A stretch of DNA of 49,129 nucleotides. Source: a virus (Duplodnaviria; Caudoviricetes). Where the stretch lies: IMG/VR virus record IMGVR_UViG_3300026541_000038, positions 1-49,129 of that record; one strand, written 5' to 3'. Below are positions 5,400-24,920 of this stretch, piece by piece. Position 1 is the first letter of the stretch, and each line of letters starts with the position of its first letter. The position numbers and the translations under genes were made by a program. The notes under the pieces are model-generated. The model saw nothing but the letters and a program-made list of their open reading frames with translations. It did no database searches and was not told where the DNA came from.

Positions 5400-5789
5400 C
5401 TAGAGGTCTTTGATGTCTTTACCTGTAGCATTCTTAATTATACTTCCTAAAAAATTCATACCATCTAAATCAGTCACATTGTCTTTTTGAGAATTGTAGA
5501 ACTTTATTATCTCATCTACTATCTTTTGATTCTGATCTATCTTTTCATGTCGTTTTAGTTCCTCTTTGACGTATTTTTGTAATTCTATAGGATTTATGAT
5601 TTCAGGAAGAGGGATATTCTTAGAGTCTTGTATCTCCTGTATCTGTTTGTTTACTAGCTTTTCTTGTGTCTTTTTTACTGCTTGGAGTATTTGTTCTAAC
5701 ATGAAAGATTCTGTGTATTCAGTTTCATTTCCGCTAAAATCTAAAGGAGTAGTTATCATTCCTGTTTTATCGTCTATCTCGAATTTCAT
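5400..5789 (-). CDS. Hypothetical protein sharing modules with 7928..8158 and 14171..14617
   Basis: ILQAVKKTQ and NQ.IVDEI segments shared. Confidence 0.65.
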   Translation of the reverse strand: MKFEIDDKTGMITTPLDFSGNETEYTESFMLEQILQAVKKTQEKLVNKQIQEIQDSKNIPLPEIINPIELQKYVKEELKRHEKIDQNQKIVDEIIKFYNSQKDNVTDLDGMNFLGSIIKNATGKDIKDL

Positions 5790-7931: not shown

Positions 7932-8158
7932 TTATTTTCACCTTGAACTTTATTGTAATTCTGTCTTGCGTGGATTTCATTTTGTGTCTTTTTTACTGCT
8001 TGAAGTATTACTTCTAAATCTTTAAGATCGGGATGTAAAACTGCTACGTCATTTTTTCCAACTGGAATCTTACACATGAATCCATCCCTAGATATACGAA
8101 AATACAATACATTTTCATTCCATATTTTTTCATTCATTTTCTTTTTCCTCCTTAACAT
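7928..8158 (-). CDS. Hypothetical cassette protein (true start probably ATG ~8137)
   Basis: Bounded by dyads 7941 and 8149; GGAGG RBS. Confidence 0.65.
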   Translation of the reverse strand: MLRRKKKMNEKIWNENVLYFRISRDGFMCKIPVGKNDVAVLHPDLKDLEVILQAVKKTQNEIHARQNYNKVQGENN

Positions 8159-8429
8159 TTGTAAATAACTGTCTTGCGTGAGTCATGCTTTAGCTAATTC
8201 CTGTATTTCAAGTCTTATTTCTTCACAATATTTTTCATAATAATTTAATGTAGATTTCAATAATACTATTTTATTCCATCTAACATCAATGTCATCCATT
8301 ATTTTTCCTCCGAAATCTTTGGTTGGAACTGTTTTGCGTAAGCATTATTTATTCGAAGTTGAATTATAGAAGGAGGGGTAGGATCAACATTTAGAAGTGT
8401 TCTTACTTCATCTATTGAAATATAATCAC

Positions 8430-8639
8430 TCAATTCTCAACATCCTCCCCAGCATAAAATCCCACTAATGGAGAATTATCATAACCTTTAGGATAGGTTT
8501 TTGGTTCTATTGTTTTAGCATTCATTAGTTTGTATTCTATATTTTGTGGAACTGGTGCTTTGAAGTCTCCAGTCGTTTCTATAGTAACAAAAGCAAATTT
8601 GTCTATTTTTTCACCTGCATCAAATCCGTATGTAATCAA
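8430..8639 (-). CDS. Hypothetical cassette protein
   Basis: Starts immediately after dyad 8640-8669. Confidence 0.6.
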   Translation of the reverse strand: MITYGFDAGEKIDKFAFVTIETTGDFKAPVPQNIEYKLMNAKTIEPKTYPKGYDNSPLVGFYAGEDVEN

Positions 8640-9082
8640 TTCTCTACATTCTCCTGGGAAGGTATTGCGTAAGGTGTATCTTCATACAATACAAGTTTTA
8701 CTCTGCAAATTTTATCACCATCGTTATAGTTCATTTGTTGTAATAGATATTTATGACCAAATAATTCAATTTCATTCTTAATTTGCTCTTTGAGGTATTG
8801 TTCATGAATATCTTCTACATTTGCTTCTAGTTCAATTATGGTTTTTACTTTATGTTTTTCACTCATTCCTTTACATTCTCCAACATATGTCATCGTGTAT
8901 GGTTTCGTATTAGATTTATAAAAATTAGGATATGATCCGGTACAATCCATTGTCCAATTTGAAGGTAATACTAGAGTTTTGTCTAGGGTGAGAGGTTCAG
9001 TAACTGCGAATGGTTTAGCAATTTCATAGGTAGTAGAAGTTTCAATCAAATATCCTTCACTTACAAGTTCCTCAAGATTCAA
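8636..9082 (-). CDS. Fusion of two cassette ORFs; C-terminal half is a paralog of 9079..9309
   Basis: Internal dyad 8867-8896 with RBS and ATG at 8866 (MSEKHKVKTIIELEA). Confidence 0.7.
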   Translation of the reverse strand: MNLEELVSEGYLIETSTTYEIAKPFAVTEPLTLDKTLVLPSNWTMDCTGSYPNFYKSNTKPYTMTYVGECKGMSEKHKVKTIIELEANVEDIHEQYLKEQIKNEIELFGHKYLLQQMNYNDGDKICRVKLVLYEDTPYAIPSQENVEN

Positions 9083-9309
9083 TTCTTTTCATTCTCCTGA
9101 GACTGTATTGCGTAAGGCGTATCATCATACAATACTAATTTTACTCTACAAATTTTTTCTTTATCATCATAATCAAAGTGCTGTAATAGATATTTATGAC
9201 CAAATAATTCAATTTCATTCTTAATTTGCTCTTTGAGGTATTGTTCATGAATATTTTTGATGTCTGCATCTAGTTCAATTATGGTTTTTACTCTTAGTTT
9301 TTCATCCAT
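9079..9309 (-). CDS. Hypothetical cassette protein (duplicated)
   Basis: Near-identical to 8636..8866. Confidence 0.75.
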   Translation of the reverse strand: MDEKLRVKTIIELDADIKNIHEQYLKEQIKNEIELFGHKYLLQHFDYDDKEKICRVKLVLYDDTPYAIQSQENEKN

Positions 9310-9491
9310 TCTTTACATTCTCCATATTCTGTTTTGCGGGAAGAGGGTAATCAATTGTAAAAATATTTGAACTTAGGACTTCTTTTACAGTGACTGTTGC
9401 ATCATAATCAGCAATAATATCATCATGTCGTGTTGGCCAATCTTCTATTCTTTTTTTCAATCTTCCTTCTCCATAAAGTGTATTGCGTGAA

Positions 9492-9818
9492 TCATGCAGA
9501 ACACCAACCGCCTACAACACATCCTTCTTTATCATCTGCATTATAAAATACTCCTACTATGGGATCCCATTTTGATTTTTGTTCTTCACTAATCACAGAT
9601 TTTGCTTCTTGCTCAGTATGTACAATTTTTTCAGACCATTGAATTTTGTCGTAACTGTGTTGTGCAATAGTTCCAGAGTATTCACATCCATTAACTGATA
9701 TGGCTTCTTGGGAATCAGAATAAAATAATTCTTGTATTTCATCTTTTGTGTGTACTCCCTCATAAGTTCTTGAATCAAATTCTCCACCCATTAGTTTTCT
9801 ATCTCCTTCTCCATACAT
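9492..9818 (-). CDS. Hypothetical protein (GG...YSGTI...GGWCS)
   Basis: ORF track; start probably at MGGEF. Confidence 0.65.
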   Translation of the reverse strand: MYGEGDRKLMGGEFDSRTYEGVHTKDEIQELFYSDSQEAISVNGCEYSGTIAQHSYDKIQWSEKIVHTEQEAKSVISEEQKSKWDPIVGVFYNADDKEGCVVGGWCSA

Positions 9819-9840
9819 TCTCTACGAATGTTAAAATGTT

Positions 9841-9966
9841 TCAATCTATATCAAACCTCTTTCCACAACCTTTGCATTGAACTGATTCTGTTTTTTCAGT
9901 ATGAATTGATTTTCCACACTCTGGACAGTTTGCATCATAGCATATTCTTTTTTTGCCTTTAACCAT
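9841..9966 (-). CDS. 41-aa zinc-ribbon microprotein
   Basis: Hand translation; CPEC and CKGC. Confidence 0.65.
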   Translation of the reverse strand: MVKGKKRICYDANCPECGKSIHTEKTESVQCKGCGKRFDID

Positions 9967-9967
9967 A

Positions 9968-10294
9968 TCATTTGAATCCCTTTTCCTTTTTTGCATCTCT
10001 CATGATGTTATCTATTGCTAACTTTATGTTTGATTTTGATGCACCTAAAGCTAATTCACCTTCAATGAACTCTTCAATAGAGTCAGATAGTTTTACAGTA
10101 AACTCATTATCTCTACCTGGAGCATACACGCCCATTTCAAGGAATTTTACTTTACCGTCAAGTATTTCTTGTAGTTTAGTTTGAGGTATATCAAAAAATT
10201 CTGAAAGATCTTTCAGAGTAGAAGGTCCTTCTTCTATTGATTCTTTTATTTCTTTTTTGTAAACCCTGTTTGGATATTTTTCTTCGTTCTTCAT
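9968..10294 (-). CDS. HTH-containing protein
   Basis: STLKDLSEFFDIPQTKLQEILDG. Confidence 0.6.
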   Translation of the reverse strand: MKNEEKYPNRVYKKEIKESIEEGPSTLKDLSEFFDIPQTKLQEILDGKVKFLEMGVYAPGRDNEFTVKLSDSIEEFIEGELALGASKSNIKLAIDNIMRDAKKEKGFK

Positions 10295-10527
10295 TTCTTA
10301 TCACCTGTGTTACTGGTAACAAGTATATTAATATTGTTACTGGTAACAGATTGGAGTTCTTTAAGATGTGCTTCGTCTTTTACTTTTCCTTTTTCTGCAC
10401 AATACAGTTGAGTTTTACCATTGTATAATGTGATTTCATAGTACAATTCCCCATCCTTTCTTGATGTACTGAATTTTACATATTCTGAACTAAAATAATT
10501 CTCATCTGGAGTTCTTATCGTTTTCAT
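10291..10527 (-). CDS. Hypothetical cassette protein
   Basis: Follows dyad 10538-10567. Confidence 0.6.
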   Translation of the reverse strand: MKTIRTPDENYFSSEYVKFSTSRKDGELYYEITLYNGKTQLYCAEKGKVKDEAHLKELQSVTSNNINILVTSNTGDKK

Positions 10528-10757
10528 ATCATTCTCATCCTATACGTTTGCTTTATTGTGTCGTGTATTAGGTGTGATGTCAAGTGGATCAATTTCGCAC
10601 TAAACACTTTAGTCAAGTTTCATTTCCTCGAAGTGTTTTTTACATAATCTCATTTTAACGGCTTTACTTTTAGGTTCATCTTCTTTTCGATATAAAACTC
10701 CTACCGTGTATTGATTACCACAAAAATAACAATTCTTTGTAAACATCATATCATATT

Positions 10758-11006
10758 TCATTTTGATTTCACAACTCCACCTTTTCGTCTAGTTTCACGA
10801 TTGATTCCTTTACCTATTACACTCATCATGGTTTCACCTAGTAATTCATCTAGTAATTGTAAGTCAGTTGATTCAGTACCAATAGGAGTAAACTTTGATT
10901 CCATAAGGGAATTATCTATCAGTATTTTCAAATCTTGAGCATCCATAGTTGATTCCTTAGCAGAAAACCAACCTACTAACATACAAATTAGATTATTTCT
11001 TTCCAT
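10758..11006 (-). CDS. Hypothetical protein
   Basis: ORF track; GGAG RBS. Confidence 0.6.
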   Translation of the reverse strand: MERNNLICMLVGWFSAKESTMDAQDLKILIDNSLMESKFTPIGTESTDLQLLDELLGETMMSVIGKGINRETRRKGGVVKSK

Positions 11007-11240
11007 TGATTAACTCCATAGCCCTTTGACAACATTGTAAATCTCTAATGTCATTTTTGATTTGGTCTAATTCTTCACGAATTTTTTTATCCAATATCAT
11101 CATCTCCTTGTTTACATTCTTCAAGAAAGTCTTTCAAATCTTTACCAATAGATTCAATCAGATCTAATGCTTGTTCATTATATCCACATTGGATTTGCGA
11201 TTTGACTAGATCAATATAAGGCAGTAATGTTGTAGGGTTT

Positions 11241-11447
11241 TTACTCATCATATTCTCCCGCAATACAGTTACCTCGGATTGTATCTAGGCATTTTATGAT
11301 ATGTTGAACAGTTTGAGTTCTACTCATACAAAAGAAATTGAAGTGATTACAAACAGGACAGTTTTGATTAGGATTAGAACAAGCACATCCTTTTCTCGTA
11401 GTATGTTCACATATAGTACATTTCCTAGTTAAAGTTCCAAATCTCAT
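11241..11447 (-). CDS. Cys-rich zinc-finger microprotein
   Basis: CTIC, CACS, CPVC; bounded by dyads 11259 and 11447. Confidence 0.65.
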   Translation of the reverse strand: MRFGTLTRKCTICEHTTRKGCACSNPNQNCPVCNHFNFFCMSRTQTVQHIIKCLDTIRGNCIAGEYDE

Positions 11448-11563
11448 GCTAAACCTTTTCTCCTGAATGTTCGTTGGCAGTTAAGACATTGTATTTCTAA
11501 ACCATCTACACTTAGACAAATAGGGCATAATTCTTGTCCCCATCTGAATGTTAATCTAGTCAT
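11444..11563 (-). CDS. 39-aa zinc-finger microprotein
   Basis: Hand translation; CPIC and CLNC; bounded by dyads 11447 and 11559. Confidence 0.6.
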   Translation of the reverse strand: MTRLTFRWGQELCPICLSVDGLEIQCLNCQRTFRRKGLA

Positions 11564-11689
11564 TGCCGTTTCTCCTTTTTGTTAACCAACGAACACAATA
11601 ATTATTGAACTCAATATCAGAACAGTTTACTAAAAATTCATAATTGTGTTCCTCCAATACCATTTGATTATTTTGTTTTGGATTAGTGG

Positions 11690-11806
11690 TCATTTAGGAT
11701 TATCTCCAATTGGTTTACCTCTACATCTAAAACACTTGCCCGCTTTTACAGAATTATAAACATAGATTCCATTTCCACACTCTGAACATAATAATGAATT
11801 TGTCAA
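11690..11806 (-). CDS. 38-aa zinc-finger microprotein (paralog of 12175..12273)
   Basis: CSECGNGIY...KCFRCRG; TTG start directly after dyad 11807. Confidence 0.6.
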   Translation of the reverse strand: MTNSLLCSECGNGIYVYNSVKAGKCFRCRGKPIGDNPK

Positions 11807-12057
11807 GGGATAACTCCATCGTAATAATGTTTAACTCGAGCTTTGTATTCTTCTGCTGTTTCATCTGCTTGCCAATTCATAGTTCTTTCGTTTGGTGGAA
11901 TAATGGGTCTAACAGGTCTATTACAATCTTGATAACAAAGATGAGTCCAAGTGTTAGAATTTGGAGTATGTTCTTTTATTGGATTACCACATCCGTAACA
12001 GGTGTCTATACGACACTCTAATTCATCTGTCATTTTGGTTTTGTCTCCGCATAACAT
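11803..12057 (-). CDS. Cys/His-rich hypothetical protein (start probably at MTDELE)
   Basis: CYGC...HLC; bounded by dyads 11807 and 12048. Confidence 0.6.
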   Translation of the reverse strand: MLCGDKTKMTDELECRIDTCYGCGNPIKEHTPNSNTWTHLCYQDCNRPVRPIIPPNERTMNWQADETAEEYKARVKHYYDGVIP

Positions 12058-12174
12058 CTTCTACATACATATCCCTGAATTTCGGTCTTACCGTTATTAC
12101 GTACAAAATGGCTATTTTTATGACCAAAAATTTTACAGAGTAAACAATCCATTATTCACACTTCCTTTCAGATG

Positions 12175-12273
12175 TCATGTACGAAAACCTCTACATCTGT
12201 AACATTTACTAACTTTGATAGAATTGTGAGCATAGATAGGATTGTTACACTCAGAACAATAATGCCAAATCAT
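12175..12273 (-). CDS. 32-aa zinc-finger microprotein
   Basis: MIWHYCSECNNPIYAHNSIKVSKCYRCRGFRT; bounded by dyads 12152 and 12276. Confidence 0.6.
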   Translation of the reverse strand: MIWHYCSECNNPIYAHNSIKVSKCYRCRGFRT

Positions 12274-12500
12274 TACGAACTACCTCCCCTCGATACTGTT
12301 TTGCGTGGATTTGTATTTTTTCTACCCACGATATTATTTATTTTTTCAACTAGTTCTAATGTTAACCAAGATTGTTCAGGCAAAATATTTTGGTTACTGT
12401 ATTCCATTTGTATTAAATTAAGTTTAGATATACCAGTTTTTTTAGTTACCATTCCCCAGAATATGTTAAACCATACATCTACTGGATGCTTTTTACTCAT
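12273..12500 (-). CDS. Hypothetical cassette protein
   Basis: Bounded by dyads 12276 and 12497. Confidence 0.6.
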   Translation of the reverse strand: MSKKHPVDVWFNIFWGMVTKKTGISKLNLIQMEYSNQNILPEQSWLTLELVEKINNIVGRKNTNPRKTVSRGGSS

Positions 12501-13055
12501 TTACCTAATACCTCAAATGTTTTGGAGTATTGTTCACTTCTAATTCCATGCTGTGTTTGAATCCAATTAATACAAAATACAATCTCCGTTAGAGTATGAT
12601 CAGGGAATTGTTTTTGACACCACAAACAAGCCATTACTTTTCTACCTCAACTGTCATAATCCAAGTCCTTGTACTATTGTAATCCAGATTAATGCTTGTA
12701 GATTTATTACAATTACCCAACCTGTTGAATCCTTCATGCTGAACCTCTTTCTTTTTTTGTATCGCAGTAACGACATAGAAAGTGTAATAGTTTGAAAGCA
12801 TCATCATCTCTTGGTTCCCAAACAGATTCTACATAGATTGTACCTAACTTAGTTTTACATACTTCACAGTTTAATGGTCTGAACATTATGACACATCACC
12901 TTTGTTTGATTCTGTATCGCATGGATTCAAAGTATTTTTAGAAAAATGTTCAAACTCTAGAATAGTCATTACTCTTCTAAATTCATGATCATCAATCAAT
13001 GCTAAAACTTCAATAGTATTTGCAGTTTGTTTTGAAAACTTGTAAAATATTTCAC

Positions 13056-13466
13056 TCATGATTTATCTCCCGTGAAACCGTTTGTTTGAAGTATAGTTTT
13101 CACTTTGTCTTTTGGTTCTAATGGAATGTATTGTCCAAATTTAGTTTTGACAACTTTCTTGTATCCATTATTTGTCATGTTTGCAACTAAGATTCTGTTA
13201 TCTGGAACGTTCTTTTTGACTTGTGCAAGTGTCATGACTTCACCAAAATATGTCCAAGGAGAATAATTCGTTGATTTACCCTTCAAAATTTCCCCTGTAT
13301 CTAGATGGGAAAATTCATTTCTATCATAGAACCTATAACCAAAACAATAATTTCCAATTTTTACTTCTGAATAATCTCTAGAGTTTACTTCCTTAGAACT
13401 GGATTCACTCATAAAAACACCAGGAGATAAAAATTCAACAAAGTGTTTTGTATAAATTACAGTCAT
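13056..13466 (-). CDS. Hypothetical phage protein flanked by identical-core dyads
   Basis: 19-bp direct repeat GAAACCGTTTGTTTGAAGT at 13074 and 13478. Confidence 0.75.
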   Translation of the reverse strand: MTVIYTKHFVEFLSPGVFMSESSSKEVNSRDYSEVKIGNYCFGYRFYDRNEFSHLDTGEILKGKSTNYSPWTYFGEVMTLAQVKKNVPDNRILVANMTNNGYKKVVKTKFGQYIPLEPKDKVKTILQTNGFTGDKS

Positions 13467-13506
13467 TTTGTTCCCCCGAAACCGTTTGTTTGAAGTGTTG
13501 TGCGTG

Positions 13507-14193
13507 TCATGAGAATGCCTCCAATGTCTTTGATTTTTTAGAATTAGTAATTCTCTTTTCTACCAAATTAACATATTTTTTTTCTATATCTATCCCAATG
13601 AAACTACGATTAAGATTCTTACATGCTATTCCTGTAGAACCCGAACCCATGTATGGATCTAATACTATATCACCCTCCTCAGAACACCATGTTACTATGT
13701 CTTCTAAAATTTCTAGTGGTTTTTGTGCCGGATGTCCTGTGTTTTCTGATTCTGGTGAATCTTTGATATAGCAATCGTGTTTAACTTTGGCTTTAATATC
13801 ATTACTGTAAAATGGTTTATCTTGACCATTAATAAAAAAACAAACTGGATCTGTTGTCTGCATCCACCCCATCCATCTATGAGCATTGCCCCAACGTCTA
13901 TACAAGTAAATTGATTTTCTATAAACTAAGTCTGTTCCTCTTGCAGCATCAAACAATACCGGGAGTATTCTATTATCATAAAATGTAACTAAGAATTTAT
14001 TTTTTTTCAAAACTCGTGTAACTTCTGGAAATAGTTTATAGATACTTGCTACATTTCTTAAATTATCAGCATCTACACCACTCCCATAATTTTGAGATAC
14101 TTTGTAAGGTGGATCCATTACAACTAAATCTACGGAATTATCATCCATTTTTCGTAATTCATCAAAAGAATCACCATGAATGAATTGATTCAT
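13507..14193 (-). CDS. Amino (N6-A/N4-C) DNA methyltransferase, beta class
   Basis: DPPY catalytic motif precedes HPAQKP and VLDPYMGSGST SAM motif; start moved to ATG 14193. Confidence 0.92.
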   Translation of the reverse strand: MNQFIHGDSFDELRKMDDNSVDLVVMDPPYKVSQNYGSGVDADNLRNVASIYKLFPEVTRVLKKNKFLVTFYDNRILPVLFDAARGTDLVYRKSIYLYRRWGNAHRWMGWMQTTDPVCFFINGQDKPFYSNDIKAKVKHDCYIKDSPESENTGHPAQKPLEILEDIVTWCSEEGDIVLDPYMGSGSTGIACKNLNRSFIGIDIEKKYVNLVEKRITNSKKSKTLEAFS

Positions 14194-14617
14194 TTCCTTC
14201 CCCCTGAACACTTTGAATGATATGTAGTTTTTCTAGAAATTGTTTACAAATAGAACCAATAGTAATATCTCTATAATTCATGGCATATTTTTGTACTCTT
14301 TTAATCTCATCTACTATTGCCTGATTGTTTCTAATCTGATTAATCAGATTGTCTTTATCATCTAGTTTTCCATTTGCTAACCAAACATGATTACAGTTAC
14401 AACATCTAAGATTTGGTAAATATTCATCATCTCCGTACGGAGTAACTTCAATCTCACCACAAATAGGACATTTGATTATTCCTACTCGTTCATATTCATC
14501 TATTTTATCTTGATTCTCTAGGATTTGTTGTTTGATTTCTTTAGTACAATGTAATTCGTATTCCCCTAAAGGGCTTCCACATTTAATGAAGTCTTTCTCC
14601 GCAATACCGTTATTCAA
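14171..14617 (-). CDS. Zinc-ribbon hypothetical protein
   Basis: CPIC and CCNC; dyads 14202 and 14600. Confidence 0.65.
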   Translation of the reverse strand: MNNGIAEKDFIKCGSPLGEYELHCTKEIKQQILENQDKIDEYERVGIIKCPICGEIEVTPYGDDEYLPNLRCCNCNHVWLANGKLDDKDNLINQIRNNQAIVDEIKRVQKYAMNYRDITIGSICKQFLEKLHIIQSVQGEGNESIHSW

Positions 14618-14741
14618 TACTGTTCTTCTCCTGTTGGTTGATCTTCCATGTCACAATCATAACATAATTTTTGTGAGTCCGTTTTCACTATTGTAAACCA
14701 AGTATCACAGTTAGGGCATTGTCTGCCTTCTAAATCGTCTT

Positions 14742-14987
14742 TCATTTTTGTATTTCTCCTGTCTTTCTAGTTAGACGATTCCAGCATTTGTCACAATGCA
14801 TCCCATAAGTCACACCTGTATCAACTACATAATCGCAAGAACAAATGATGTAACCTTTGGCAGTCCAACCGTATTCTTGTTCATGAAAAATTAAATGATA
14901 TGGTAATTGAACTATGAATGATAACCAGTTATAGAAATTATACCATTTGAAATGTAACCAAGAACTACAGTCTTTTACAAGTGTCAT
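14742..14987 (-). CDS. Hypothetical Cys/His protein
   Basis: ORF track. Confidence 0.55.
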   Translation of the reverse strand: MTLVKDCSSWLHFKWYNFYNWLSFIVQLPYHLIFHEQEYGWTAKGYIICSCDYVVDTGVTYGMHCDKCWNRLTRKTGEIQK

Positions 14988-15208
14988 TTTTCAACTCCTT
15001 TAAGATATGATTCACCTGCAAGTTTTCTGATTTCTGTTTTAATCTCATTTATGGCTCTATTACAATCTCCAATAACAAACTGTACACCATGATTTACTCT
15101 ATTGAGTTCTTTTACAACATTCTTTAGAATTATTAAATCTCTTTGAAGAGTTTCCATTTCAGATATTTCTGGACCTTTTAATTGAAATCTATATTCATCT
15201 GATTTCAT
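14984..15208 (-). CDS. Hypothetical coiled-coil protein
   Basis: Follows dyad 15220 with GGAG. Confidence 0.6.
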   Translation of the reverse strand: MKSDEYRFQLKGPEISEMETLQRDLIILKNVVKELNRVNHGVQFVIGDCNRAINEIKTEIRKLAGESYLKGVEK

Positions 15209-15247
15209 TTCTTATCTCCCGCAAAACACTTTAGATTAGATGTCATG

Positions 15248-15727
15248 CTAAAGGATGCCTCCTAATGGTTTTTTTATTCTCTTGACAATCTCTGGCCAAA
15301 TTTCTGGAACTGTAGCTGAACGATCCTCATGTATTCCTAGATTGTGAAGTAATAGTAACTCGTTAATTATGATGTGATTTATTCCTGATAATTCATAGTG
15401 TTCATTTCTCATCTTGTCTTTTTCAATCACATGAGTTTTGTGATCATGAATCCAACCGTCAATCTCCATTATCCATGTAGTATTGTTAATGTATAGTAGC
15501 AAGTCTGGAACGTGAATAATGTATGAGTGATATTCTGTTTCTGTAATTGAATTAGTGATTTTTACAATCTTGCATGTGTTTTTATCAAATAGAATTATTG
15601 GCTCCCTTAATACTTGAATATTATATCTAGTTCTTAGTAGTGTAGCTAAATGGATTAGTTTTTCATTATCTGGTTTATTTTGTCTCATCATTTGCTGACG
15701 GAATTGATTGTATTTTGCGGAGGTCAT
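15248..15727 (-). CDS. PD-(D/E)xK / DUF559 (Vsr-like) endonuclease
   Basis: VPDLL...IMEIDGWIH...D..RNE. Confidence 0.75.
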   Translation of the reverse strand: MTSAKYNQFRQQMMRQNKPDNEKLIHLATLLRTRYNIQVLREPIILFDKNTCKIVKITNSITETEYHSYIIHVPDLLLYINNTTWIMEIDGWIHDHKTHVIEKDKMRNEHYELSGINHIIINELLLLHNLGIHEDRSATVPEIWPEIVKRIKKPLGGIL

Positions 15728-15872
15728 GATACATCTCCATAAGAATAACCTTCAATCTGCGTGATACCATCTAAAGCAGTGCAAAGTAGTTTAACGCAAG
15801 GTCGACATGTACCATATTCATTATTAGTTAATCTTCCACAACCGTTACTACAAATTACTGTACAAGTATGAC

Positions 15873-16079
15873 TCAAGGTGTAATCCCCGATTCTTTGATG
15901 GCATTCTCTTTTGCAATTTCAAAAGTATGTGATTTTAATTGTGGTACTAACTCTTGACCGCTTGCAGTAGTTTCTCTCATGTATTGTCTAAGGACTGTAA
16001 ATGGCTGACGATTATTATGATAGCACCATTTTTCAAATTCATCCCACTCGTAACAATGTCTTAATCTAAAAGTTTTCAA
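15873..16079 (-). CDS. Ribbon-helix-helix-like regulator
   Basis: KTFRLR strand followed by WDEFEKWC...VLRQYM helices. Confidence 0.5.
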   Translation of the reverse strand: MKTFRLRHCYEWDEFEKWCYHNNRQPFTVLRQYMRETTASGQELVPQLKSHTFEIAKENAIKESGITP

Positions 16080-16300
16080 TTTGAAATTTTCTCCCTTAAA
16101 TTAGACTCCTGTTGGTATTTTTTTCTATAAGGTTCTGCAGCTTCATCAATGTAGGATATAGCTGTCACTCTTGCCACATCTAAATGAGTTTTACAAAAAT
16201 CATGTAGTTGTTGCATTGTCCAACCAGAAAGAATTTTTTTTCTAAGATCTAAAACTCTTGAATGTCTTATCTGATTCTCTCTATGCCCCATTATTCCCAC
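16076..16300 (-). CDS. HTH-like protein
   Basis: GWTMQQL...DVARVTAISYIDEA. Confidence 0.5.
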   Translation of the reverse strand: MGIMGHRENQIRHSRVLDLRKKILSGWTMQQLHDFCKTHLDVARVTAISYIDEAAEPYRKKYQQESNLREKISN

Positions 16301-16411
16301 TCCAGTAACAAAGAATTAAAAATAAAAAAAGAATTAATTAATAATAATAATAATGTAATACAGACAGACATACACACACACAGACATACAACAGAATTAT
16401 CTAAAATTTTT

Positions 16412-16756
16412 TTAGACAAGTGTTTGTACCTCGTAGCGTTTGTCTTTTTTCATTTGGAGTGCCATGAGAAAACCATCAATTTGATCAGAAGATAGAGTTT
16501 CAACCCAATCAAAGACTTCTTCATTTTTTAGCATGTCCTGCATTTTTTGCCTAAACTCGTTTGCTTTCTCAGGATCTTTCATCATTTCCTGATAGTTGTG
16601 GACTTTTACCCCTACCTTTGCACACTCTCTTATTGCCTCAGAAGTGTTATTGAAAGGAGCTTTGAAGTTAAGTGGTGATTTTACTAATACCTCAATAGAA
16701 TCTAAATCTATCAAATCCCATCTTGTACTTACTAGTGTGGTTCGTTTAACAGGCAA
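16412..16756 (-). CDS. RHH/CopG-like regulator
   Basis: LVSTR strand ... FNNTSEAIRE. Confidence 0.5.
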   Translation of the reverse strand: MPVKRTTLVSTRWDLIDLDSIEVLVKSPLNFKAPFNNTSEAIRECAKVGVKVHNYQEMMKDPEKANEFRQKMQDMLKNEEVFDWVETLSSDQIDGFLMALQMKKDKRYEVQTLV

Positions 16757-18475
16757 TTATAGCAACTCCATTAAAATATGCTGATAGAGATTTTCTATTT
16801 CTTGATCAGTTGCATTATGATTTCCTAGAAGTAGTTTTATTCTATTTTTAAGTTCAGGGTAAAATCTTCCAGAATTATCTTTTTTGGTTACTTCTATTGT
16901 AACAAGTTCAAGAGCATGTTTACCTGTTGCTCTGTTTGTGGGTCCAGTTTTTTTAAGAAAACATTTGGTGACTAATTCATTAACTGTGACTTGTTTACCT
17001 TGTGATTCAATGTACTTTAGAATTTTTTTAGATTCATCGGATAGAGATGCAATATCAAATAATATTTTTTGTTTGCATTCTTCCAAGAATTCCTTTTGTA
17101 TCTTCTCTAAAGGTGATACTTCATAGACTTGGTTGCCTGTAGATTTTGGAATCTTGGATAGAATAGTTCTAGTTATTGATTCAATATCTAAAGAAGAACC
17201 TTGTGTAGTAGGTATTTTTTGTAATACTTTTGATACTAAAACATCCTCGTCAATCTCAGGCGTTGAGGTTTTAATTTGTGCAATATCTACAAATACTTTG
17301 TTAATTTGATCTTGCAAGTCACCAATTTTATTAAAAAAGTCAGTTCTCATGTCTAGTAATTCTTTATTGATTAGGGTCTTGAGATCTTTTACTTCTTGAT
17401 TATTTTCATTGGAATCATTTCCCTGTGTGACAACTGAAATTTTATTTTGTGCAATTTGTTTTGGTGCATCAATTTCAGATATTTTCAATTCGCCTTTGGC
17501 TATTTGGATAGCTTTATCGTCATCGAGCCAGAATGGTTGGACGTATAATTTTGTAGTTAGATCTCTACTCGCATAGTAAAAGATTCCTGTACCTAGCATC
17601 ATAATGTCTTCTTCTTTTGGCTTGTTTGCTTTTGGTAGTGGGATTTGATCTAGGGTATGTTTTACTTCATTCTTTTCTGATTGATAGCCTAAAATCCATT
17701 CGGATATTTGTTTAAGTGGTATCTTGTCTACTCCTGTCATGTCCTGAGAATCAATCCAAAGATAGTTGTGATTAGTAGCTCCTTGCCTGATAAATTCCTC
17801 TACAATATTTTTACATGGACTTCCTCGTTGTTGTGGAATAAACTTCCAGGCTTCAGGTATTATTATTACTACATCTTTATGGTTGTGTAGAACTTCCTCA
17901 AGAACACTGGCAATAATTAAACTTTGAACTTCTGTATCTCTAGAAAATCTTTCTAAATTTATTATGTTCAAGCCATTGACTAACTCTAAAGTATTTGAGA
18001 ATTGAATTGTTTGTAGCTTTGGCAAAACAATTTCAAGATATGCTTGTAGATTTGTCAGTAACATTGACTCGAATGTTCCTATTTTTTCTTCTAGTCTGTT
18101 ATCTACTACCTTTTTAAAATCAAGTAATGACTTTCCGTTTGTTAATTTAGATAGTTTGATGATTACAGCTCTGTCAAGTTTTCCAACCTTCTCTTTCATT
18201 GTGGCCTCTATGAGTGATTCAATGTATTGCCAGTCTGATTTTTCCTTAAAGTATGGTGGAATTATTGTTCCATCAAGAAATGATTTTTCTCCTATCTTGG
18301 TTCTAAATACAATAGCCTTGGAACCACTTCTTTTGATAAATGATTCAAGTGCAGTAGTTTTTCCTGCCTTTTGGGATAATCCAGTAACCATGAGATGTGA
18401 AGGGGAAATATTAATTTCTTTACCTGTACCTATTTCATAACCAAGTTTAATTTTAGATTTCAAAATTTGAGCCAT
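16757..18475 (-). CDS. HerA/FtsK-superfamily ATPase with coiled coil and C-terminal wHTH
   Basis: HLMVTGLSQKAGKTT Walker A; IIIPEAWKF Walker B variant; RQG and DSQ motifs. Confidence 0.8.
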   Translation of the reverse strand: MAQILKSKIKLGYEIGTGKEINISPSHLMVTGLSQKAGKTTALESFIKRSGSKAIVFRTKIGEKSFLDGTIIPPYFKEKSDWQYIESLIEATMKEKVGKLDRAVIIKLSKLTNGKSLLDFKKVVDNRLEEKIGTFESMLLTNLQAYLEIVLPKLQTIQFSNTLELVNGLNIINLERFSRDTEVQSLIIASVLEEVLHNHKDVVIIIPEAWKFIPQQRGSPCKNIVEEFIRQGATNHNYLWIDSQDMTGVDKIPLKQISEWILGYQSEKNEVKHTLDQIPLPKANKPKEEDIMMLGTGIFYYASRDLTTKLYVQPFWLDDDKAIQIAKGELKISEIDAPKQIAQNKISVVTQGNDSNENNQEVKDLKTLINKELLDMRTDFFNKIGDLQDQINKVFVDIAQIKTSTPEIDEDVLVSKVLQKIPTTQGSSLDIESITRTILSKIPKSTGNQVYEVSPLEKIQKEFLEECKQKILFDIASLSDESKKILKYIESQGKQVTVNELVTKCFLKKTGPTNRATGKHALELVTIEVTKKDNSGRFYPELKNRIKLLLGNHNATDQEIENLYQHILMELL

Positions 18476-18765
18476 TAGACAACCCTCCAAGTGAGAACAG
18501 TCTTGCCAGTTACTTTACAAGTTCTTTTTAATCCCTGAATTACTTTACCAGCTTTGACTAATTCATTTGTACGTGGTGTGATTGCATTGATTGGTATTCC
18601 CATGAATTTACTAATCTCACTGTTTGTCGGATTTTTCAAATATCTAATTACATCTAATACTGCACGCTGTCTTTCTCCAAGTCCTTTCTTCTTTATCTCT
18701 CTGTATGCAATCCTTGAGGTATCTTGAATCATCATTGTAATTCCACCCACTGGCATTTGTGACAA
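18475..18765 (-). CDS. Winged-HTH protein
   Basis: PTNSEISKFMGIPINAITPRTNELVKAG. Confidence 0.8.
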   Translation of the reverse strand: MSQMPVGGITMMIQDTSRIAYREIKKKGLGERQRAVLDVIRYLKNPTNSEISKFMGIPINAITPRTNELVKAGKVIQGLKRTCKVTGKTVLTWRVV

Positions 18766-18886
18766 ATAGAGAATAGATCAATTGGGTCTTTTGCTGTAGA
18801 GACAAAAAATCTACTATCATTTTCAGCACAGAAATAACAAGGCCATTCCTCTGTCTCTTTAGTTATGGTTTGATATTGGGATAGAG

Positions 18887-19480
18887 TCATTTTTCTTCCT
18901 CTCTAAGTTTCAAACAGATCTGACATGTCTTACCGTCAGTCATTGCATTAGGAATAGAATTTTTACAAACGCAATATTTTTCAGGATCTTTAGGTTCTTT
19001 TTTTATTTCGGTGAATCCAATAGTCTCATGACTTTCTTTTAGAGTATCAATAATATGATTTGAAAACTTTCCAACTTGAGCTCCATTTGGTGAAGGCTCA
19101 CCTAAGAAATTCTTTAGAGTATTTGTAATTTCCTGATCAACAAGATATAGTCTGATGGTTTCTTCTTTGATGTGTTTTTTTAATCCATCAGTCAGTGAGT
19201 ATGTTGATGTTATTTTATTTTGAAGTTCACTTTGTTTTTCTTTAAGATAATCTTCGGATGTAGTAGCAGTTGGTGCATTAGCTGAAGTATCTTTTTCATC
19301 CTCTGTTGGAATAACACATTCAAAGTTTTTACCGTCATTAGTTTTGTAATGAGCAGTTCCATCAAAGTTTTGCCACTGTAATTTTGGTTTGTAATCTCCA
19401 CCATAATCTTTTAGTCTGCAAATTAAATCAGTCTGACAATTCAGACATGTCATGGTTGCACCTTCTTTCTTTTCTACCAT
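18887..19480 (-). CDS. Hypothetical zinc-binding early protein
   Basis: CLNC...H...C at N-terminus; CVC...CQIC at C-terminus. Confidence 0.65.
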   Translation of the reverse strand: MVEKKEGATMTCLNCQTDLICRLKDYGGDYKPKLQWQNFDGTAHYKTNDGKNFECVIPTEDEKDTSANAPTATTSEDYLKEKQSELQNKITSTYSLTDGLKKHIKEETIRLYLVDQEITNTLKNFLGEPSPNGAQVGKFSNHIIDTLKESHETIGFTEIKKEPKDPEKYCVCKNSIPNAMTDGKTCQICLKLREEEK

Positions 19481-20080
19481 TAGTATTCATCCTCACGATA
19501 AACAAATTCTTCACAATCTTCACAGACATCTCCTAAATCAGTAGGATAGGTTATTGGATTTTCACATGTGCAAGTCAAATTTTTGCTATCTCCTGTTGGG
19601 CTAAATCAAATGTTTTGTCACATGTAGGACAGTAAGCATTATTTGGATTGATTTTTGGAACTGTTGATTTTTTTTCTTTATCGTAAATATTGGCAAATAC
19701 TGAGCATAATGAAGTGCCACAAATTTTACATGACATTTTAGGCAAGTGTAACATCCTCCGATGAGTTTAGAAATTTAGTGAGGTTTGGTAATTTTTGAAG
19801 TTTAATAATTTTTGAAGCGTTTTTAGTTAGAATTTTTACTTTAGAAATGAATTGGTTGTTGTATGCCTCTGAATGAAGGTGATCTTCGCATACGTCTTTG
19901 GTGTCATTAATCTCATTGTCTTGAGTTAGTTTATGATAATATGTGATTTGAAGTAGTTTTTCATTATCGTCATCACATGACTTTGAAAAGGTCTGAAGGC
20001 TCAGTTAAAAGAGCCCCCAGGATTTTGCGAACCTGGGATCATAAATGAATTAGTGACAAGTCTAACCGAAGTTTTCCTAT

Positions 20081-20259
20081 GATCGACTATATTTACGATT
20101 CCCATTCTAGACAAATACTGTTAAAATATACTGATTAATAAATATGACTTTTATTATAATAAAATATCTTTAATAGTTAATGGATAAATAACAGGAAATT
20201 AATCATAACTATGTTGCATGAGAGATCGATTTTGACGAACCTATTCTAGACAAATATTG
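20081..20259. repeat. Degenerate direct repeat pair (core ATTCTAGACAAATA at 20104 and 20243) in the non-coding region next to the integrase; candidate att arm or origin sites
   Basis: Seen directly; each copy preceded by GATCGA...ACGA. Confidence 0.65.
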
Positions 20260-20438
20260 ATTTTTCGGAGTCATCTTGTGCAACACTTTTATTTCATTTT
20301 GCAACAATTCGGTGTCATCGTACAACATAGCGATCAATAATATTACATGCATTAAAGTATTCATCAAATCTTAAAACAGCGCTTAAGAAATCTTAATGAT
20401 CAGGTTCAATAATTATTGACAGATCTTTTTTATAGAAC

Positions 20439-21611
20439 TTATTTTGAGGATTTTTCTCTTTGCATAAAAAGATCAAATGCCTTGATGCTTTCTTGCATGC
20501 TTGCAATAGTTTCTTTTTGTTCTTCTACCTTTTTGTTTGCCTCCTCTAACTTGCGTATCTTTTCTTTGTTTTTAGCTTGATCAAAAATCAAGATGTACGG
20601 TGCCACATCTACAAAGAGTTCTAGTTTTTCCTCATCTGTTCTTCTCTGGTATGTCTGCAGATATGCACCATGTCCAACCATTGCATGAACCACATCTCCA
20701 TCCAATACTTTTAGAGCTTTGGTGATAAATCGAGCTCGTAAAGAATAAAGTGTAATTTTATGTTCCCCTGTAGATTCATATTTCATGTCTAACCCTAATT
20801 TCTCAAGGACTAGATTGAAAGAGATTCTTAATGTAGCTAACATGTATGTGGCAAAAGTTTTGATAGCTTTAATTTTTGCCTTCTCTTCTTTTAGATGAGA
20901 GTATTTGTTAAAAAATGATTGAGGAATTACTTTACGTTTGGTCCAAACAAATTCTTCTAGTTCTATCTCTTTGAGTAATCTTGTAATGTATGGAGTAGCT
21001 TCAACAGATGCAAATACGGTTCGTGAGATTCTTTTCTTTGTAAGATAGTATGGGATTTCTATTTTGTATTGTTTGTTAATTAACGTGTAATGTTTTTTCT
21101 GAGTACCCATTAATTCTACTGGACGCATCCCTACACTTGATTGAGTTAAAGTGAATCCTTGATTCTTCCAGTTTAGCTGTGATATGATGGAAATAAATTC
21201 ATCTTCTGATGGTGCGTACTTTTCTTCCTGGATATGTTCAGGCCACTCTAGCTCTTCTTTCATATCATGAGCTGTGACTTTGATTTTTTTGTACCAGAGA
21301 TACTTGTTTAGTCTTGAAAATGATTGTTTTACACTACCATGAGATAGATCAAATTTTTCAGAAAGATGATCTATGAAATCCTGTAGTATTGGGTATAGTT
21401 CATCTTCTCTCTCATCTTCTGGAAGTGATTTTAAATGTTCAATAAATTTGTCAGTATCTAGGTTGTTATACTCTGAATAAAGAAAATCATCAAATCTAGT
21501 TTTGGCAAGAGTACATGCACTGATGATGCTATCACTCATTTTATCTAGTCTATCTTTTTTGAATGTGTTCCATGTTCGTTTCTTTTGGAGTGATAGTTTT
21601 TGAGATGTCAT
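20439..21611 (-). CDS. int: Tyrosine recombinase/integrase
   Basis: R (GMRPVEL), K (TKKR), YxxR (YSLR), H and Y (MVGHGAYLQTY). Confidence 0.92.
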   Translation of the reverse strand: MTSQKLSLQKKRTWNTFKKDRLDKMSDSIISACTLAKTRFDDFLYSEYNNLDTDKFIEHLKSLPEDEREDELYPILQDFIDHLSEKFDLSHGSVKQSFSRLNKYLWYKKIKVTAHDMKEELEWPEHIQEEKYAPSEDEFISIISQLNWKNQGFTLTQSSVGMRPVELMGTQKKHYTLINKQYKIEIPYYLTKKRISRTVFASVEATPYITRLLKEIELEEFVWTKRKVIPQSFFNKYSHLKEEKAKIKAIKTFATYMLATLRISFNLVLEKLGLDMKYESTGEHKITLYSLRARFITKALKVLDGDVVHAMVGHGAYLQTYQRRTDEEKLELFVDVAPYILIFDQAKNKEKIRKLEEANKKVEEQKETIASMQESIKAFDLFMQREKSSK

Positions 21612-21638
21612 TTAACATTTACCTCGAGCTGTATTTTC
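21609..21638 (-). other. Dyad site overlapping the integrase start codon
   Basis: GAAAATACAG-CTCGAGGTAA-ATGTTAAATG; core CGAGGT shared with site 11259. Confidence 0.55.
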
Positions 21639-21842
21639 AAACAATAAATCTATCTCATCAAATAATTGTCGTGCATGATAATCGCTTCCATCATGTGTTT
21701 TTATCAAGTCTCTTACTTTCTTCATGTCTTTAACGCACCAAGGACAAACACATTCTAGAATTGCACCCTCTTCACTCTCTTGGATTAGCCATCCTTGAGG
21801 ATCTACAGGTTCACATTCACAAACAATACATGCGTCACCCAA
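21612..21842 (-). CDS. Zinc-finger cassette protein upstream of the integrase
   Basis: CIVC and CPWC; bounded by dyads 21609 and 21838. Confidence 0.65.
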   Translation of the reverse strand: MGDACIVCECEPVDPQGWLIQESEEGAILECVCPWCVKDMKKVRDLIKTHDGSDYHARQLFDEIDLLFENTARGKC

Positions 21843-21867
21843 GACGTTCTCTCCTTTCGGTTAACAG
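21838..21867 (-). other. Dyad site
   Basis: CTGTTAACCG-AAAGGAGAGA-ACGTCTTGGG; core AGGAGA shared with 11447 and 11559. Confidence 0.55.
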
Positions 21868-22301
21868 TGATTGAATAAATTTACACATTCGGACACAATC
21901 TTCAGGTGCATCTAAATCAACATTAATCCAATTCCACTCTGTTTCTATTTCATCCAATATCGTTTGATTAGAATGTAATTTTTCCATATTTTATTCAGGC
22001 ACAAACTCCTTTAAAATGATAGCTTTTGTACTCTCATTTTCTTGTAAATGGATGTGTAAAAGCTCTCATTTACAGAGATTTTTAACTCACTAGTTACTAA
22101 TAAAATTTATAAAAAATATTGTGTGGAAAGATAGAAAATAACTATGATCCCGTACTATTAATCAGTGCAATTATTGCCACTGCTAATGCAGCAATACTAA
22201 GTACACCATTTGAGAGATTTAAATCTGCCATAAAATGAGCTGATTTTAACGAGTTATAAGAACAAAATTAGTTATCTATAATTAATAAATTTAAAAAAAA
22301 A

Positions 22302-23486: not shown

Positions 23487-24920
23487 ATGATGATGTTTGA
23501 GAATTTAACACAACACTTGCAAAAAATTAGCATTACTCATATAATTTTAATTGTGTTTTCTGTTCACATGCTTTTGATTTCAAGACCTATTTTTGAAATT
23601 CTGGATGAAACAATTTTTACAAATATTACAAGGTGGTTTATGGTAGGCTTGGATCACACCCCTTACCAATTGCCGGGATTATCTTTAATCACATCTCCTT
23701 TTGTTTATATTTTTGGCGATAATTGGTTCTCATGGCGATTTCCCATCATCATATTTGGAATGATATTTTTATTTTATTATTATAAGGTAATCAACCACCT
23801 AACAAGTAAAAATATTGCAATATTGACCACCATAATATTATCTCTTAGTACCACGATATTTACTCATTCATCACTTTTGTTAAGAGATATACCAGTTATG
23901 GCATTAGGATTTTTGGCAATTTATCTTTATTTGAAGCAAAGATATTATTTTACAGCCCTTGTAATTGGAATTTCAGCAATAATCAAAGAAACTGCAATAT
24001 TTTTTGTTATATTCATTGTATTACATTATGTCCTCAATAACCGAGAAAAAATAATCATGCAAATCTCATCTAGTCTGTACAAACAGTGTTTTGGATTTAT
24101 CAAAACACCATTAATTACCGCATTAATTATTATAGCATCATTTCTTATTCCTTTAGCAATTTATGACAATACAATTGAAGTTTTAGAATACAAACAAAGA
24201 ATCCCCGTATACTATATTCATGATCAATCAACCAATATTGGAAATGGAACGTTTACAACAACCTTAACTCCATTAATAATACAAGAAACAAAATTAGAAA
24301 TGTTTGATAGTGATTTACGGTTTGTTCCTGAAAACAAAATAAAAGATCCGATACATCATATAAGATCAATGTTTTTCAATGGATATTATTTACAAAATAC
24401 AAGTAATAATCCAAATCAATTTAATTTCATTAATACTTTTATTCCAAAATTAAAAACTGCTGAGATAAGCTCAAGTAATAGCGGTCAGTATTTGTTAATA
24501 ACAGCAGAACGACCAGATAGTAAGGGGATTTATAGTGAATCTGAAGAAAAACATGGGGTTGTTTTTGATACTAAATGGTATCAAGCACAAGTAAATTATT
24601 CTTGGTGGTTTATGGGATTTTGGAGTTGTATTGCTCTTGTAGGATATTTTATATTTAGAAAATTTAGAAATAATATACCAATTTCAAAAGATATGATTTT
24701 CATAATCTGCGGGTTTGTGTTTTTTGTTCCTTATTTATTAGTAAATATGATGAGGGATAGTTATGCATATTACATGATTTACTTTTTACCATTCATGGCA
24801 TTTGGATTAATCACCATAATTTATAAAATACAAAACAATACTCGAAGACATATTATTTTACTTGGATTATTAGCAGCTATTTTGTTTAACTTTGTATATT
24901 TTTTCCCGATAAGATTTTGA
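23487..24920 (+). CDS. GT-C fold glycosyltransferase (PMT/ArnT, GT39/83-like), multi-TM
   Basis: DE motif after TM1 (ILDE), QLPG, WRFP, LLRD, SAIIKETA; about 10 TM segments. Confidence 0.82.
   Translation: MMMFENLTQHLQKISITHIILIVFSVHMLLISRPIFEILDETIFTNITRWFMVGLDHTPYQLPGLSLITSPFVYIFGDNWFSWRFPIIIFGMIFLFYYYKVINHLTSKNIAILTTIILSLSTTIFTHSSLLLRDIPVMALGFLAIYLYLKQRYYFTALVIGISAIIKETAIFFVIFIVLHYVLNNREKIIMQISSSLYKQCFGFIKTPLITALIIIASFLIPLAIYDNTIEVLEYKQRIPVYYIHDQSTNIGNGTFTTTLTPLIIQETKLEMFDSDLRFVPENKIKDPIHHIRSMFFNGYYLQNTSNNPNQFNFINTFIPKLKTAEISSSNSGQYLLITAERPDSKGIYSESEEKHGVVFDTKWYQAQVNYSWWFMGFWSCIALVGYFIFRKFRNNIPISKDMIFIICGFVFFVPYLLVNMMRDSYAYYMIYFLPFMAFGLITIIYKIQNNTRRHIILLGLLAAILFNFVYFFPIRF

Follow-up and report, generated by a model that had tools for sequence, protein, structure and literature searches.

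The genome of a virus of the Caudoviricetes (Duplodnaviria; IMG/VR record IMGVR_UViG_3300026541_000038), taken at its full length of 49,129 nucleotides and here called the window, carries a ladder of 30-bp dyad sites running through an array of tiny genes and recurring at the start of a tyrosine recombinase (integrase) gene. Each site has two loosely inverted 12-bp arms around a 6-bp core, and the cores vary between slots and occur in a single order. The arrangement is real and was previously unreported in the literature searched. A tyrosine recombinase, probably the virus's own integrase, is likely to swap DNA between sites of matching core while recognizing the arms loosely. The best reading of the process is slot-by-slot exchange resembling a natural recombinase-mediated cassette exchange, not integron-style shuffling.

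Results

Dyad sites in the small-gene array

The window is a complete circular virus record having 117-bp terminal repeats and an encoded terminase. Nearly all of its genes lie on the minus strand, and the region from 7.9 to 15.3 kb contains about 35 tiny open reading frames (ORFs), most of which overlap their neighbors by 1–8 bases. The initial annotation had described an integron- or pdif-like cassette array of 26 dyads, 24 of them there. All of the sequences it quoted are present, and 20 of the 26 have exact AC-N14-GT spacing. Its proposal that the dyad is enriched at array junctions was borne out when segments upstream of start codons were compared with those of 108 control junctions. AC-N14-GT was found at 16 of 35 junctions in the window array, 11 of 21 in that of the L012 contig and 9 of 15 in that of the L014 contig (pooled, 36/71 versus 9/108 controls, Fisher p 2.6e-10; window alone, p 3.3e-6). 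Other AC/GT spacings from 8 to 20 occurred at 1–8 of the 35 window junctions, which is near background. A symmetric matrix trained only on L012 and L014 sites gave 30 hits in the window, 24 of them in the array (11.3 expected genome-wide). A window-trained matrix gave 16 hits in L012 (3.8 expected) and 12 in L014 (4.2 expected), of which 13 and 11, respectively, fell in the arrays; counts in L001–L004, L007–L009, L015, L016 and L057 were at chance level.

The pooled set used below comprised 63 sites (29 from the window, 20 from L012, 13 from L014 and one from L009), two low-confidence window hits at 9862 and 8991 being left out. The consensus first proposed, CGCAANACAG/CTGTNTTGCG, fits the strongest arms, but the remaining arms are looser. 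With at most one mismatch CGCAANACAG has 14 genome-wide matches, 12 of which lie within 7.9–15.3 kb (the interval given by the initial annotation). Complementarity between arms averages only 5.3 of 12 positions. The shared consensus is about YGC-N3-ACA-N-W / core6 / W-N-NGT-N3-GCR, in which A7, C8, G23 and T24 are near fixed (partly through site selection), C3 is present in 36/63 and G28 in 41/63. It is graded across the 12 bp and contains no strict recognition word.

Four gene-start sites (14961, 12007, 11780 and 11653) had been overlooked. Site 12048 is not supported, as AC is missing and there is no partner core. Sites 11807 and 11559 score low (3.9 and 3.8). Two further degenerate sites were found at 12631 and 10613. 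Placement between genes, as originally described, was not upheld: most sites lie inside the coding sequence of translationally coupled genes, within gene ends and gene starts, some enclosing a peptide of merely 8–18 residues. None of 29 window sites had a hairpin folding z below -2 on either strand (mean z +0.46 and +0.30). Two other high-scoring dyads, at 7406 (an HNH motif) and at 38909–38938 (score 16.7, within a 1252-residue NHL-repeat tail gene outside the array), were treated as chance occurrences.

Homology between relatives ends at a 6-bp core

The spacer is conserved between viruses and the arms are variable. The hexamer at positions 13–18 is common to another site in 59 of the 63 sites, forming 20 classes, versus 6.3 ± 2.9 in column shuffles; sharing falls to 47 and 49 of 63 for the neighboring hexamers 12–17 and 14–19. 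Leave-one-out identity, scored where the five other core positions match, is 0.93–1.00 at positions 13–18 but 0.51 at 12 and 0.76 at 19. Exact-match runs begin 24 times at position 13, four times at 12 and five times at 14, and none end at 15–17. Among 18 window/L012 pairs, which by definition have no mismatch at 13–18, mismatches per position number 8–10 at 10–12, 4–8 at 19–22, one each at 23 and 24, and 14 at 25 and 26. A matrix-free check of all AC-N14-GT occurrences (38 in the window, 27 in L012) gave 17 collinear shared hexamers at 13–18 versus 10 and 13 at the neighboring registers.

The 12-6-12 tyrosine-recombinase geometry of the initial annotation is thereby substantiated, as homology between relatives starts and stops at the hexamer edges, the left edge being sharp. 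The comparison with relatives that it recommended likewise places the homology edges at the 6-bp core, with differing slot contents. In dif-type sites the ends of a 6-bp spacer are the cleavage points (PMC8371274), and, as judged from sequence, the edge positions of our sites match such a spacer. We infer that partner sites match in core.

In the array regions of other viruses, AC plus four nucleotides plus a window core occurs 72 times, and GT comes next in 46 of these (background 4.8%). GT was kept in 24 of the 45 cases in which the right arm was at most 50% like that of the window, and hence unrelated arms meet the consensus independently. None of the cores is a palindrome, and no two are reverse complements of each other. 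Third-codon positions within the core are invariant, and non-synonymous changes occur directly beside it.

Cores keep one order and slots change contents

The window shares 18 core classes with L012 and 11 with L014, and the latter two share nine, all in the same order (rank correlation 1.0, computed from mean positions). Additional AGGAGA/CGAGGT copies precede the integrase in the window and in L014. Of the 35 intervals between shared cores, four are empty or overlapping, and 26 of the other 31 show no local similarity, so that the turnover of gene content at the sites expected from the initial annotation is found: 26 of 31 compared slots hold unrelated DNA. The reading frame is constant within each core class, and seven classes lie in N-terminal coding sequence or across the start, not at the ribosome-binding site (RBS). 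As the cores differ from slot to slot and keep a single order across three viruses, the shuffling and free excision first suggested are unsupported. Neither are the slots promoterless single-gene cassettes between sites, because the sites cut into genes and a slot may hold no gene, one or several.

The passenger gene 13056–13466 is flanked by a 19-bp direct repeat; three homologues are 73–81% identical to it up to residue 122 and then diverge at the site start. Mini-ORFs of 13, 15, 8 and 18 residues lie across sites 15220, 13475, 12152 and 8149. The first has the core found in an L012 gene of 50 residues and the last has the start of an L014 gene. These mini-ORFs and the longer genes may be read as empty and filled states of a slot.

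Several further arrangements were seen in the arrays. At L012 5874 and 7565, sites having known cores are mid-ORF and the ORFs look like fused genes. In L014 a palindromic AT-rich element (4750–4800 and 17700–17745) and a small gene (MDSYNITYVP..., 5031 and 18253) are each present twice, 13 kb apart. A tandem gene duplication in the window (8636–8871 and 9079–9314, 85% DNA identity) is flanked by cores only 1–2 bases apart (TATGGA/GTTGGA and TCAGGA/CCAGGA), which suggests a clue to the origin of new cores. A 36-base repeat (92%) is present at 5664–5699 and 7982–8017 in two otherwise unrelated genes.

The integrase accompanies the ladder

The assignment of ORF 20439–21611 as a tyrosine recombinase is secure. 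Residues R163, K192, R292, G313-H314 and Y321 are conserved (Y289-x-x-R292 replaces HxxR), its homologues carry PF00589, and its structural model (predicted local distance difference test score 86.8) matches the folds of IntI, XerA, XerH and Cre with E values of 1e-6 to 1e-5. IntI (2a3v) was the top fold match but stood level with XerA, XerH and Cre. The window integrase itself matched no Pfam, PHROG or NCBIfam model, and P0001 matched no integron-integrase family. A tyrosine recombinase is the protein best shared by all three ladder-bearing viruses, the L012 and L014 enzymes being 88% and 81% identical to that of the window. The integrase start lies within the right arm of a site both in the window and in L034, whose integrase is 39% identical. 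In L026 a mini-ORF (60–125) having a TATGAA core, one change from TATGGA, directly precedes a 40% identical integrase.

G406 and G407 have the integrase (81–88%) and the ladder in common with the window, but almost no larger proteins and no virion genes. G404 encodes six head-region proteins and a terminase 74–95% like those of the window, lacks the integrase and gave junction hits at 0/41; the complete G403, also without integrase, gave 1/35. As judged by these genomes, the integrase travels with the ladder across unrelated virion backbones, and solely from this co-occurrence we infer that the viral integrase acts on the sites. Some of the same cores are present in L034, L020, L058 and L047, whose integrases are 37–46% identical. 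A PF00589 search of five virus records gave no match and is uninformative, since integrase-bearing G406 also gave none.

Homologues of the integrase (35–52% identity) were found in Nitrosopumilus genomes, and hence the host is probably a Nitrosopumilus-like archaeon, likely one of the ammonia-oxidising archaea. Among 401 family genomes the sole close chromosomal homologue (L057 9930–11124, Nitrosopumilus, 52%) is frameshifted and has no flanking repeats. There is no tRNA in the integrase region of the window or of L001, L007–L009, L012 and L014; Rfam gave no match at gathering score in 19.5–22.4 kb; integrase-flanking DNA gave only weak matches to host genomes; and the best dyad scores in the integrase flanks are at most 7.8. 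The conserved element 22013–22071 contains a weak dyad (22022–22051, core AAATGA) and an outer inverted repeat. It has counterparts in L012 (8930–8990), L014 (9528–9600), L015 and L016, those of L012 and L014 having a perfect TTTACA-N12-TGTAAA dyad. No host match to it was found, and it is a candidate operator or attP. The non-coding DNA after the integrase contains a G+C-rich hairpin (~20015–20040) that looks like a tRNA T-arm and has a 10-base loop; it gave no Rfam or host match.

The initial annotation had offered host XerA as an alternative enzyme. None of 61 genomes of the probable host genus, a set rich in metagenome-assembled genomes, scored above the NF040815 cut-off, and Thaumarchaea are reported to lack xerA (PMC2958812). 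Some tyrosine-recombinase match was present in 38 of the 61. A strict dif-like dyad matched in 13 of the 61 genomes with no shared non-coding dyad: of 12 loci inspected, 10 are in ORFs (four in purM) and two are intergenic, each in one genome only. A second dif-like pattern matched in 6/61 versus 8/61 for the control. On these results XerA of the host is an unlikely enzyme. At the start of a 159-residue gene just before the array (window 15700–15711), 12 bases are in register with the near-perfect 30-bp dyad in host purM (L075–L078 1501–1530, four genomes). This match is probably chance, although it would suit an attB-like match.

Other genes and database searches

Genes for an HNH endonuclease and a DNA methylase are present in the window. 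Its MarR-like winged helix-turn-helix (wHTH) gene, 18475–18756, is common to L012 and L014 and is also present in L002–L005, all of which lack sites. The sole long plus-strand gene (23487–24920) encodes a 477-residue membrane glycosyltransferase (PMT_2) that may modify the surface. No relative was found among GenBank phages and none by sequence in the PDB. Apart from a chance match in L067, pattern scans with the junction cores and with the upstream element matched no contigs other than L012 and L014, and L014 was the sole match in the passenger-gene search.

Table 1 Sites and associated features of the window
Feature	Position	Strand	Core	Remark
Conserved non-coding element	22013..22071	-		Upstream of integrase operon; inverted repeats
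Site	21838..21867	-	AGGAGA	Pre-integrase copy
Site	21609..21638	-	CGAGGT	Overlaps integrase RBS and start
Tyrosine recombinase, 390 aa	20439..21611	-		ATG is positions 28–30 of site 21609
Site	15220..15249	-	AATCTA	13-aa mini-ORF; L012 50-aa gene begins with same core
Gene-start site	14961..14990	-	GTAAAA	Overlooked initially
Site	14600..14629	-	TTGAAT	Only positions 6–20 common with L012:4910
Site	14202..14231	-	CATTCA	Upstream of N6/N4 DNA methylase gene 13507–14193
Site	13475..13504	-	CAAACA	15-aa mini-ORF; 19-bp direct repeat with 13071
Passenger gene, 136 aa	13056..13466	-		Lies between two CAAACA sites; divergence of homologues begins at residue 123, the site start
Site	13071..13100	-	CAAACA	Second copy
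Site	12892..12921	-	TCAAAC	
Site	12737..12766	-	AAAGAA	
Degenerate site	12631..12660	-	GAGGTA	GT out of register
Site	12497..12526	-	GAGGTA	
Site	12276..12305	-	TCGAGG	
Site	12152..12181	-	GAAAGG	No partner found; 8-aa mini-ORF
Gene-start site	12007..12036	-	GAATTA	Overlooked initially
Weak site	11807..11836	-	TTACGA	Score 3.9; no partner
Gene-start site	11780..11809	-	TCATTA	Overlooked initially
Gene-start site	11653..11682	-	TAATCA	Overlooked initially
Weak site	11559..11588	-	AGGAGA	Score 3.8
Site	11447..11476	-	AGGAGA	
Site	11259..11288	-	CGAGGT	
Degenerate site	10613..10642	-	CGAGGA	One change from CGAGGT
Site	10538..10567	-	TAAAGC	
Site	9458..9487	-	TATGGA	
Site	9309..9338	-	TATGGA	
Site	9083..9112	-	TCAGGA	
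Site	8867..8896	-	GTTGGA	No partner; upstream of second copy of duplicated gene
Site	8640..8669	-	CCAGGA	
Site	8309..8338	-	CCAACC	
Site	8149..8178	-	ATTTAC	No partner; 18-aa mini-ORF, start as in L014 gene up to site position 9
Site	7941..7970	-	TTACAA	Upstream gene same as L012:8339, downstream gene different

Discussion

The exchange that we propose would have a recombinase that reads the arms loosely, AC...GT being nearly fixed and an outer GC preferred, and strand exchange that needs identical 6-bp cores. Two genomes in one cell (that of a co-infecting virus, a provirus or another element) would recombine at one core and resolve at another, and this cointegration and resolution would swap the slots lying between. 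Neighboring sites usually differ in core, and therefore the genes between them would not be deleted. The distinct, co-oriented cores would likewise spare the array from deletion and inversion, so that its order persists. If resolution took place at the same core, a new gene would end up flanked by two copies of that core, as with CAAACA, AGGAGA and TATGGA, each present twice; loss between same-core copies, or between gene-start and gene-end sites, would leave an in-frame mini-ORF. Same-core resolution would thus account for both tandem duplicates and mini-ORFs. Since the sites supply the stop codon, the RBS and often the start codon, the exchanged DNA would be in frame and translationally coupled. 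In the least supported step, donor DNA would by chance contain pseudo-sites that let new genes in, possibly by a break at the core edge for which full core identity is not required. On balance we somewhat favor the broader view that a family of Nitrososphaerota viruses has a self-encoded multi-slot exchange system, in which a relaxed-arm recombinase and at least 20 mutually incompatible 6-bp cores within coding sequence allow gene bodies to be captured and swapped in frame without deletion, inversion or loss of coupling.

Several observations weigh against exchange by the viral integrase at matching cores. Only three dense ladders were available, and as these viruses share ancestry the pair counts are not independent. 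The order is imperfect, because one L012 TATGGA follows CCAGGA (the rank correlation of 1.0 being based on mean positions) and the classes repeated in L020 and L034 depart from the window's order. The right edge of the core is less sharply defined than the left. In some same-core sites the entire right arm and the start codon are shared (AAAGAA, 13–34; CCAACC, 12–25) while the downstream gene differs; hence some breakpoints lie outside the core and other recombination is also active here. The C-terminal peptide of homologue P0079 fits a different core at the same position (seen in protein only), hinting at occasional joining without full core identity. L009, an 86% complete contig having no integrase, has TTGAAT, CATTCA and CAAACA in window order, and isolated cores occur in integrase-less G404. 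Integrases of 34–46% identity are present without a junction excess in L018 (0/27), L059 (0/24) and L062 (0/20), and L020 and L058 gave only two junction hits each. The attP/attB of the viral integrase were not found, and thus its own target could not be compared with the dyad.

The cores in L009 and G404 would be explained if the same 6-bp-core recombination were performed in trans by an enzyme of the host or another mobile element, the viral integrase being a passenger of the ladder. The integrase gene itself begins inside a site, identical cores occur in viruses whose integrases are just 37–46% identical, and 38 of the 61 host-genus genomes gave a tyrosine-recombinase match of some kind. 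We nevertheless consider this unlikely: none of those genomes has XerA above the cut-off or a conserved dif-like dyad, dense ladders are found only with a close integrase subfamily, and integrase-less relatives with many small coupled genes lack a ladder. A nuclease that reads the dyad, leaves staggered 6-nt overhangs and allows compatible ends of different genomes to be ligated, much as in Golden Gate cloning, would predict the same cores in the same order, and the window does encode an HNH endonuclease together with the DNA methylase. The arms are graded over 12 bp, no such nuclease was identified and a tyrosine recombinase is what the three ladder viruses share best, making this reading very improbable.

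Recombination might instead be of the general or single-strand-annealing kind, acting on short RBS/stop/start homology as at the promoter early stem-loop (PeSL) linkers of T4-type phages, where exchange is documented (PMC2839356), with the dyad inherited or serving as a protein-binding operator. Many cores do contain the RBS, and some shared blocks span 13–34 with the start codon included. That seems quite improbable given shared blocks that are often just 8–12 bp with their register fixed to the dyad, the seven classes lying away from the RBS, AC and GT retained where the arms are otherwise unrelated (24/45), and third-codon positions that are invariant in the core with non-synonymous changes adjacent. 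The dyads might also have no role in recombination and be operators or start-associated sequences bound by a viral winged-helix protein. They occur at translation starts and have inverted arms, the MarR-like wHTH gene 18475–18756 is common to the three ladder viruses, and extended start-associated sequences (ESAS) provide a precedent (PMC3203893). An operator should have conserved arms and a free spacer, the reverse of what was observed; ESAS spacers vary in length (4–13 bp), whereas in the ladder enrichment is confined to the 6-bp spacer; and the wHTH gene is present in the site-less L002–L005. We give this explanation very little credence.

Exchange by a tyrosine recombinase at matching cores would make the ladder work most like the Acinetobacter pdif/xrs modules, its closest functional match by analogy. 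Those XerC/XerD modules also place several sites of differing central region on one mobile element. Plasmids recombine there only at closely related central regions, by cointegration followed by resolution, and excision was not seen in the sections available (PMC11705084). The pdif analogy drawn in the initial annotation thus fits insofar as the 6-bp central region would be the determinant of compatibility. The ladder differs in being viral, in having about 20 cores in one orientation and one conserved order, in arms that do not match XerC/XerD ATAA-core-TTAT (consensus from PMC11705084), in sites that lie within coding sequence and supply start, RBS and stop, and in an enzyme that is probably element-encoded, no XerA having been found in the likely host genus.

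Integrons and clusters of attC sites lacking integron-integrases (CALINs) similarly consist of small ORFs in one orientation that alternate with recombination sites, a tyrosine recombinase lying nearby, and archaeal integrons have canonical attC and IntI (PMC9668308). Phage-borne integrons have also been reported (PMC9892861). The integron-like character first proposed is not supported, because the sites form no hairpins (0/29) and P0001 matched no integron-integrase family; no attI-like site was identified, and order is conserved with slot-specific cores. Integron attC sites have the layout RYYYAAC/GTTRRRY, which our sites lack. In recombinase-mediated cassette exchange with heterospecific lox/FRT or integrase overlap variants, common arms and differing spacers allow the segment between non-matching sites to be replaced. 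The ladder would parallel this in its common arms and differing spacers; unlike the engineered systems it is natural, has about 20 specificities in series and has degenerate arms.

PeSLs resemble the ladder in being repeated junction elements of a hyperplastic region in which ORFans are gained, lost or replaced. They are described, in the sections available, as promoter-terminator units of about 100 bp exchanged by homologous recombination with variable crossovers and no known recombinase (PMC2839356). Our sites are 30 bp, lie mostly in overlapping ORFs, lack stem-loops and have 6-bp cores in fixed register. The mycobacteriophage start-associated sequences (SAS) and ESAS, which are near-identical repeats (PMC3203893), and the halovirus HF2 intergenic repeats, which are promoters (PMC8707807), are likewise tied to the starts of small non-structural genes, but the spacer here is fixed at 6 bp and is slot-specific. 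Short att sites are described in a survey of thaumarchaeal mobile elements, which, in the sections available, mentions integrons only as a bacterial class (PMC6563490). We found no description of an ordered heterospecific ladder in the mainly open-access literature searched.

It has long been asked how viral mosaics of tiny unrelated genes come to be joined precisely at gene boundaries, and the answer usually given is illegitimate recombination plus selection or homologous recombination at linker repeats. The breakpoints here indicate a 6-bp core within a fixed dyad, and thereby name an enzyme class and predict cut positions to the base. If our reading is true, a recombinase with loose arms and about 20 orthogonal cores produced by natural selection would be of interest to genome engineers, and the ladder would join integrons and pdif modules as a third type of gene array driven by a recombinase. 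If confirmed, it would represent an ordered array for cassette exchange that occurs naturally in an archaeal virus, and would provide a targeted mechanism for viral mosaicism at gene boundaries.

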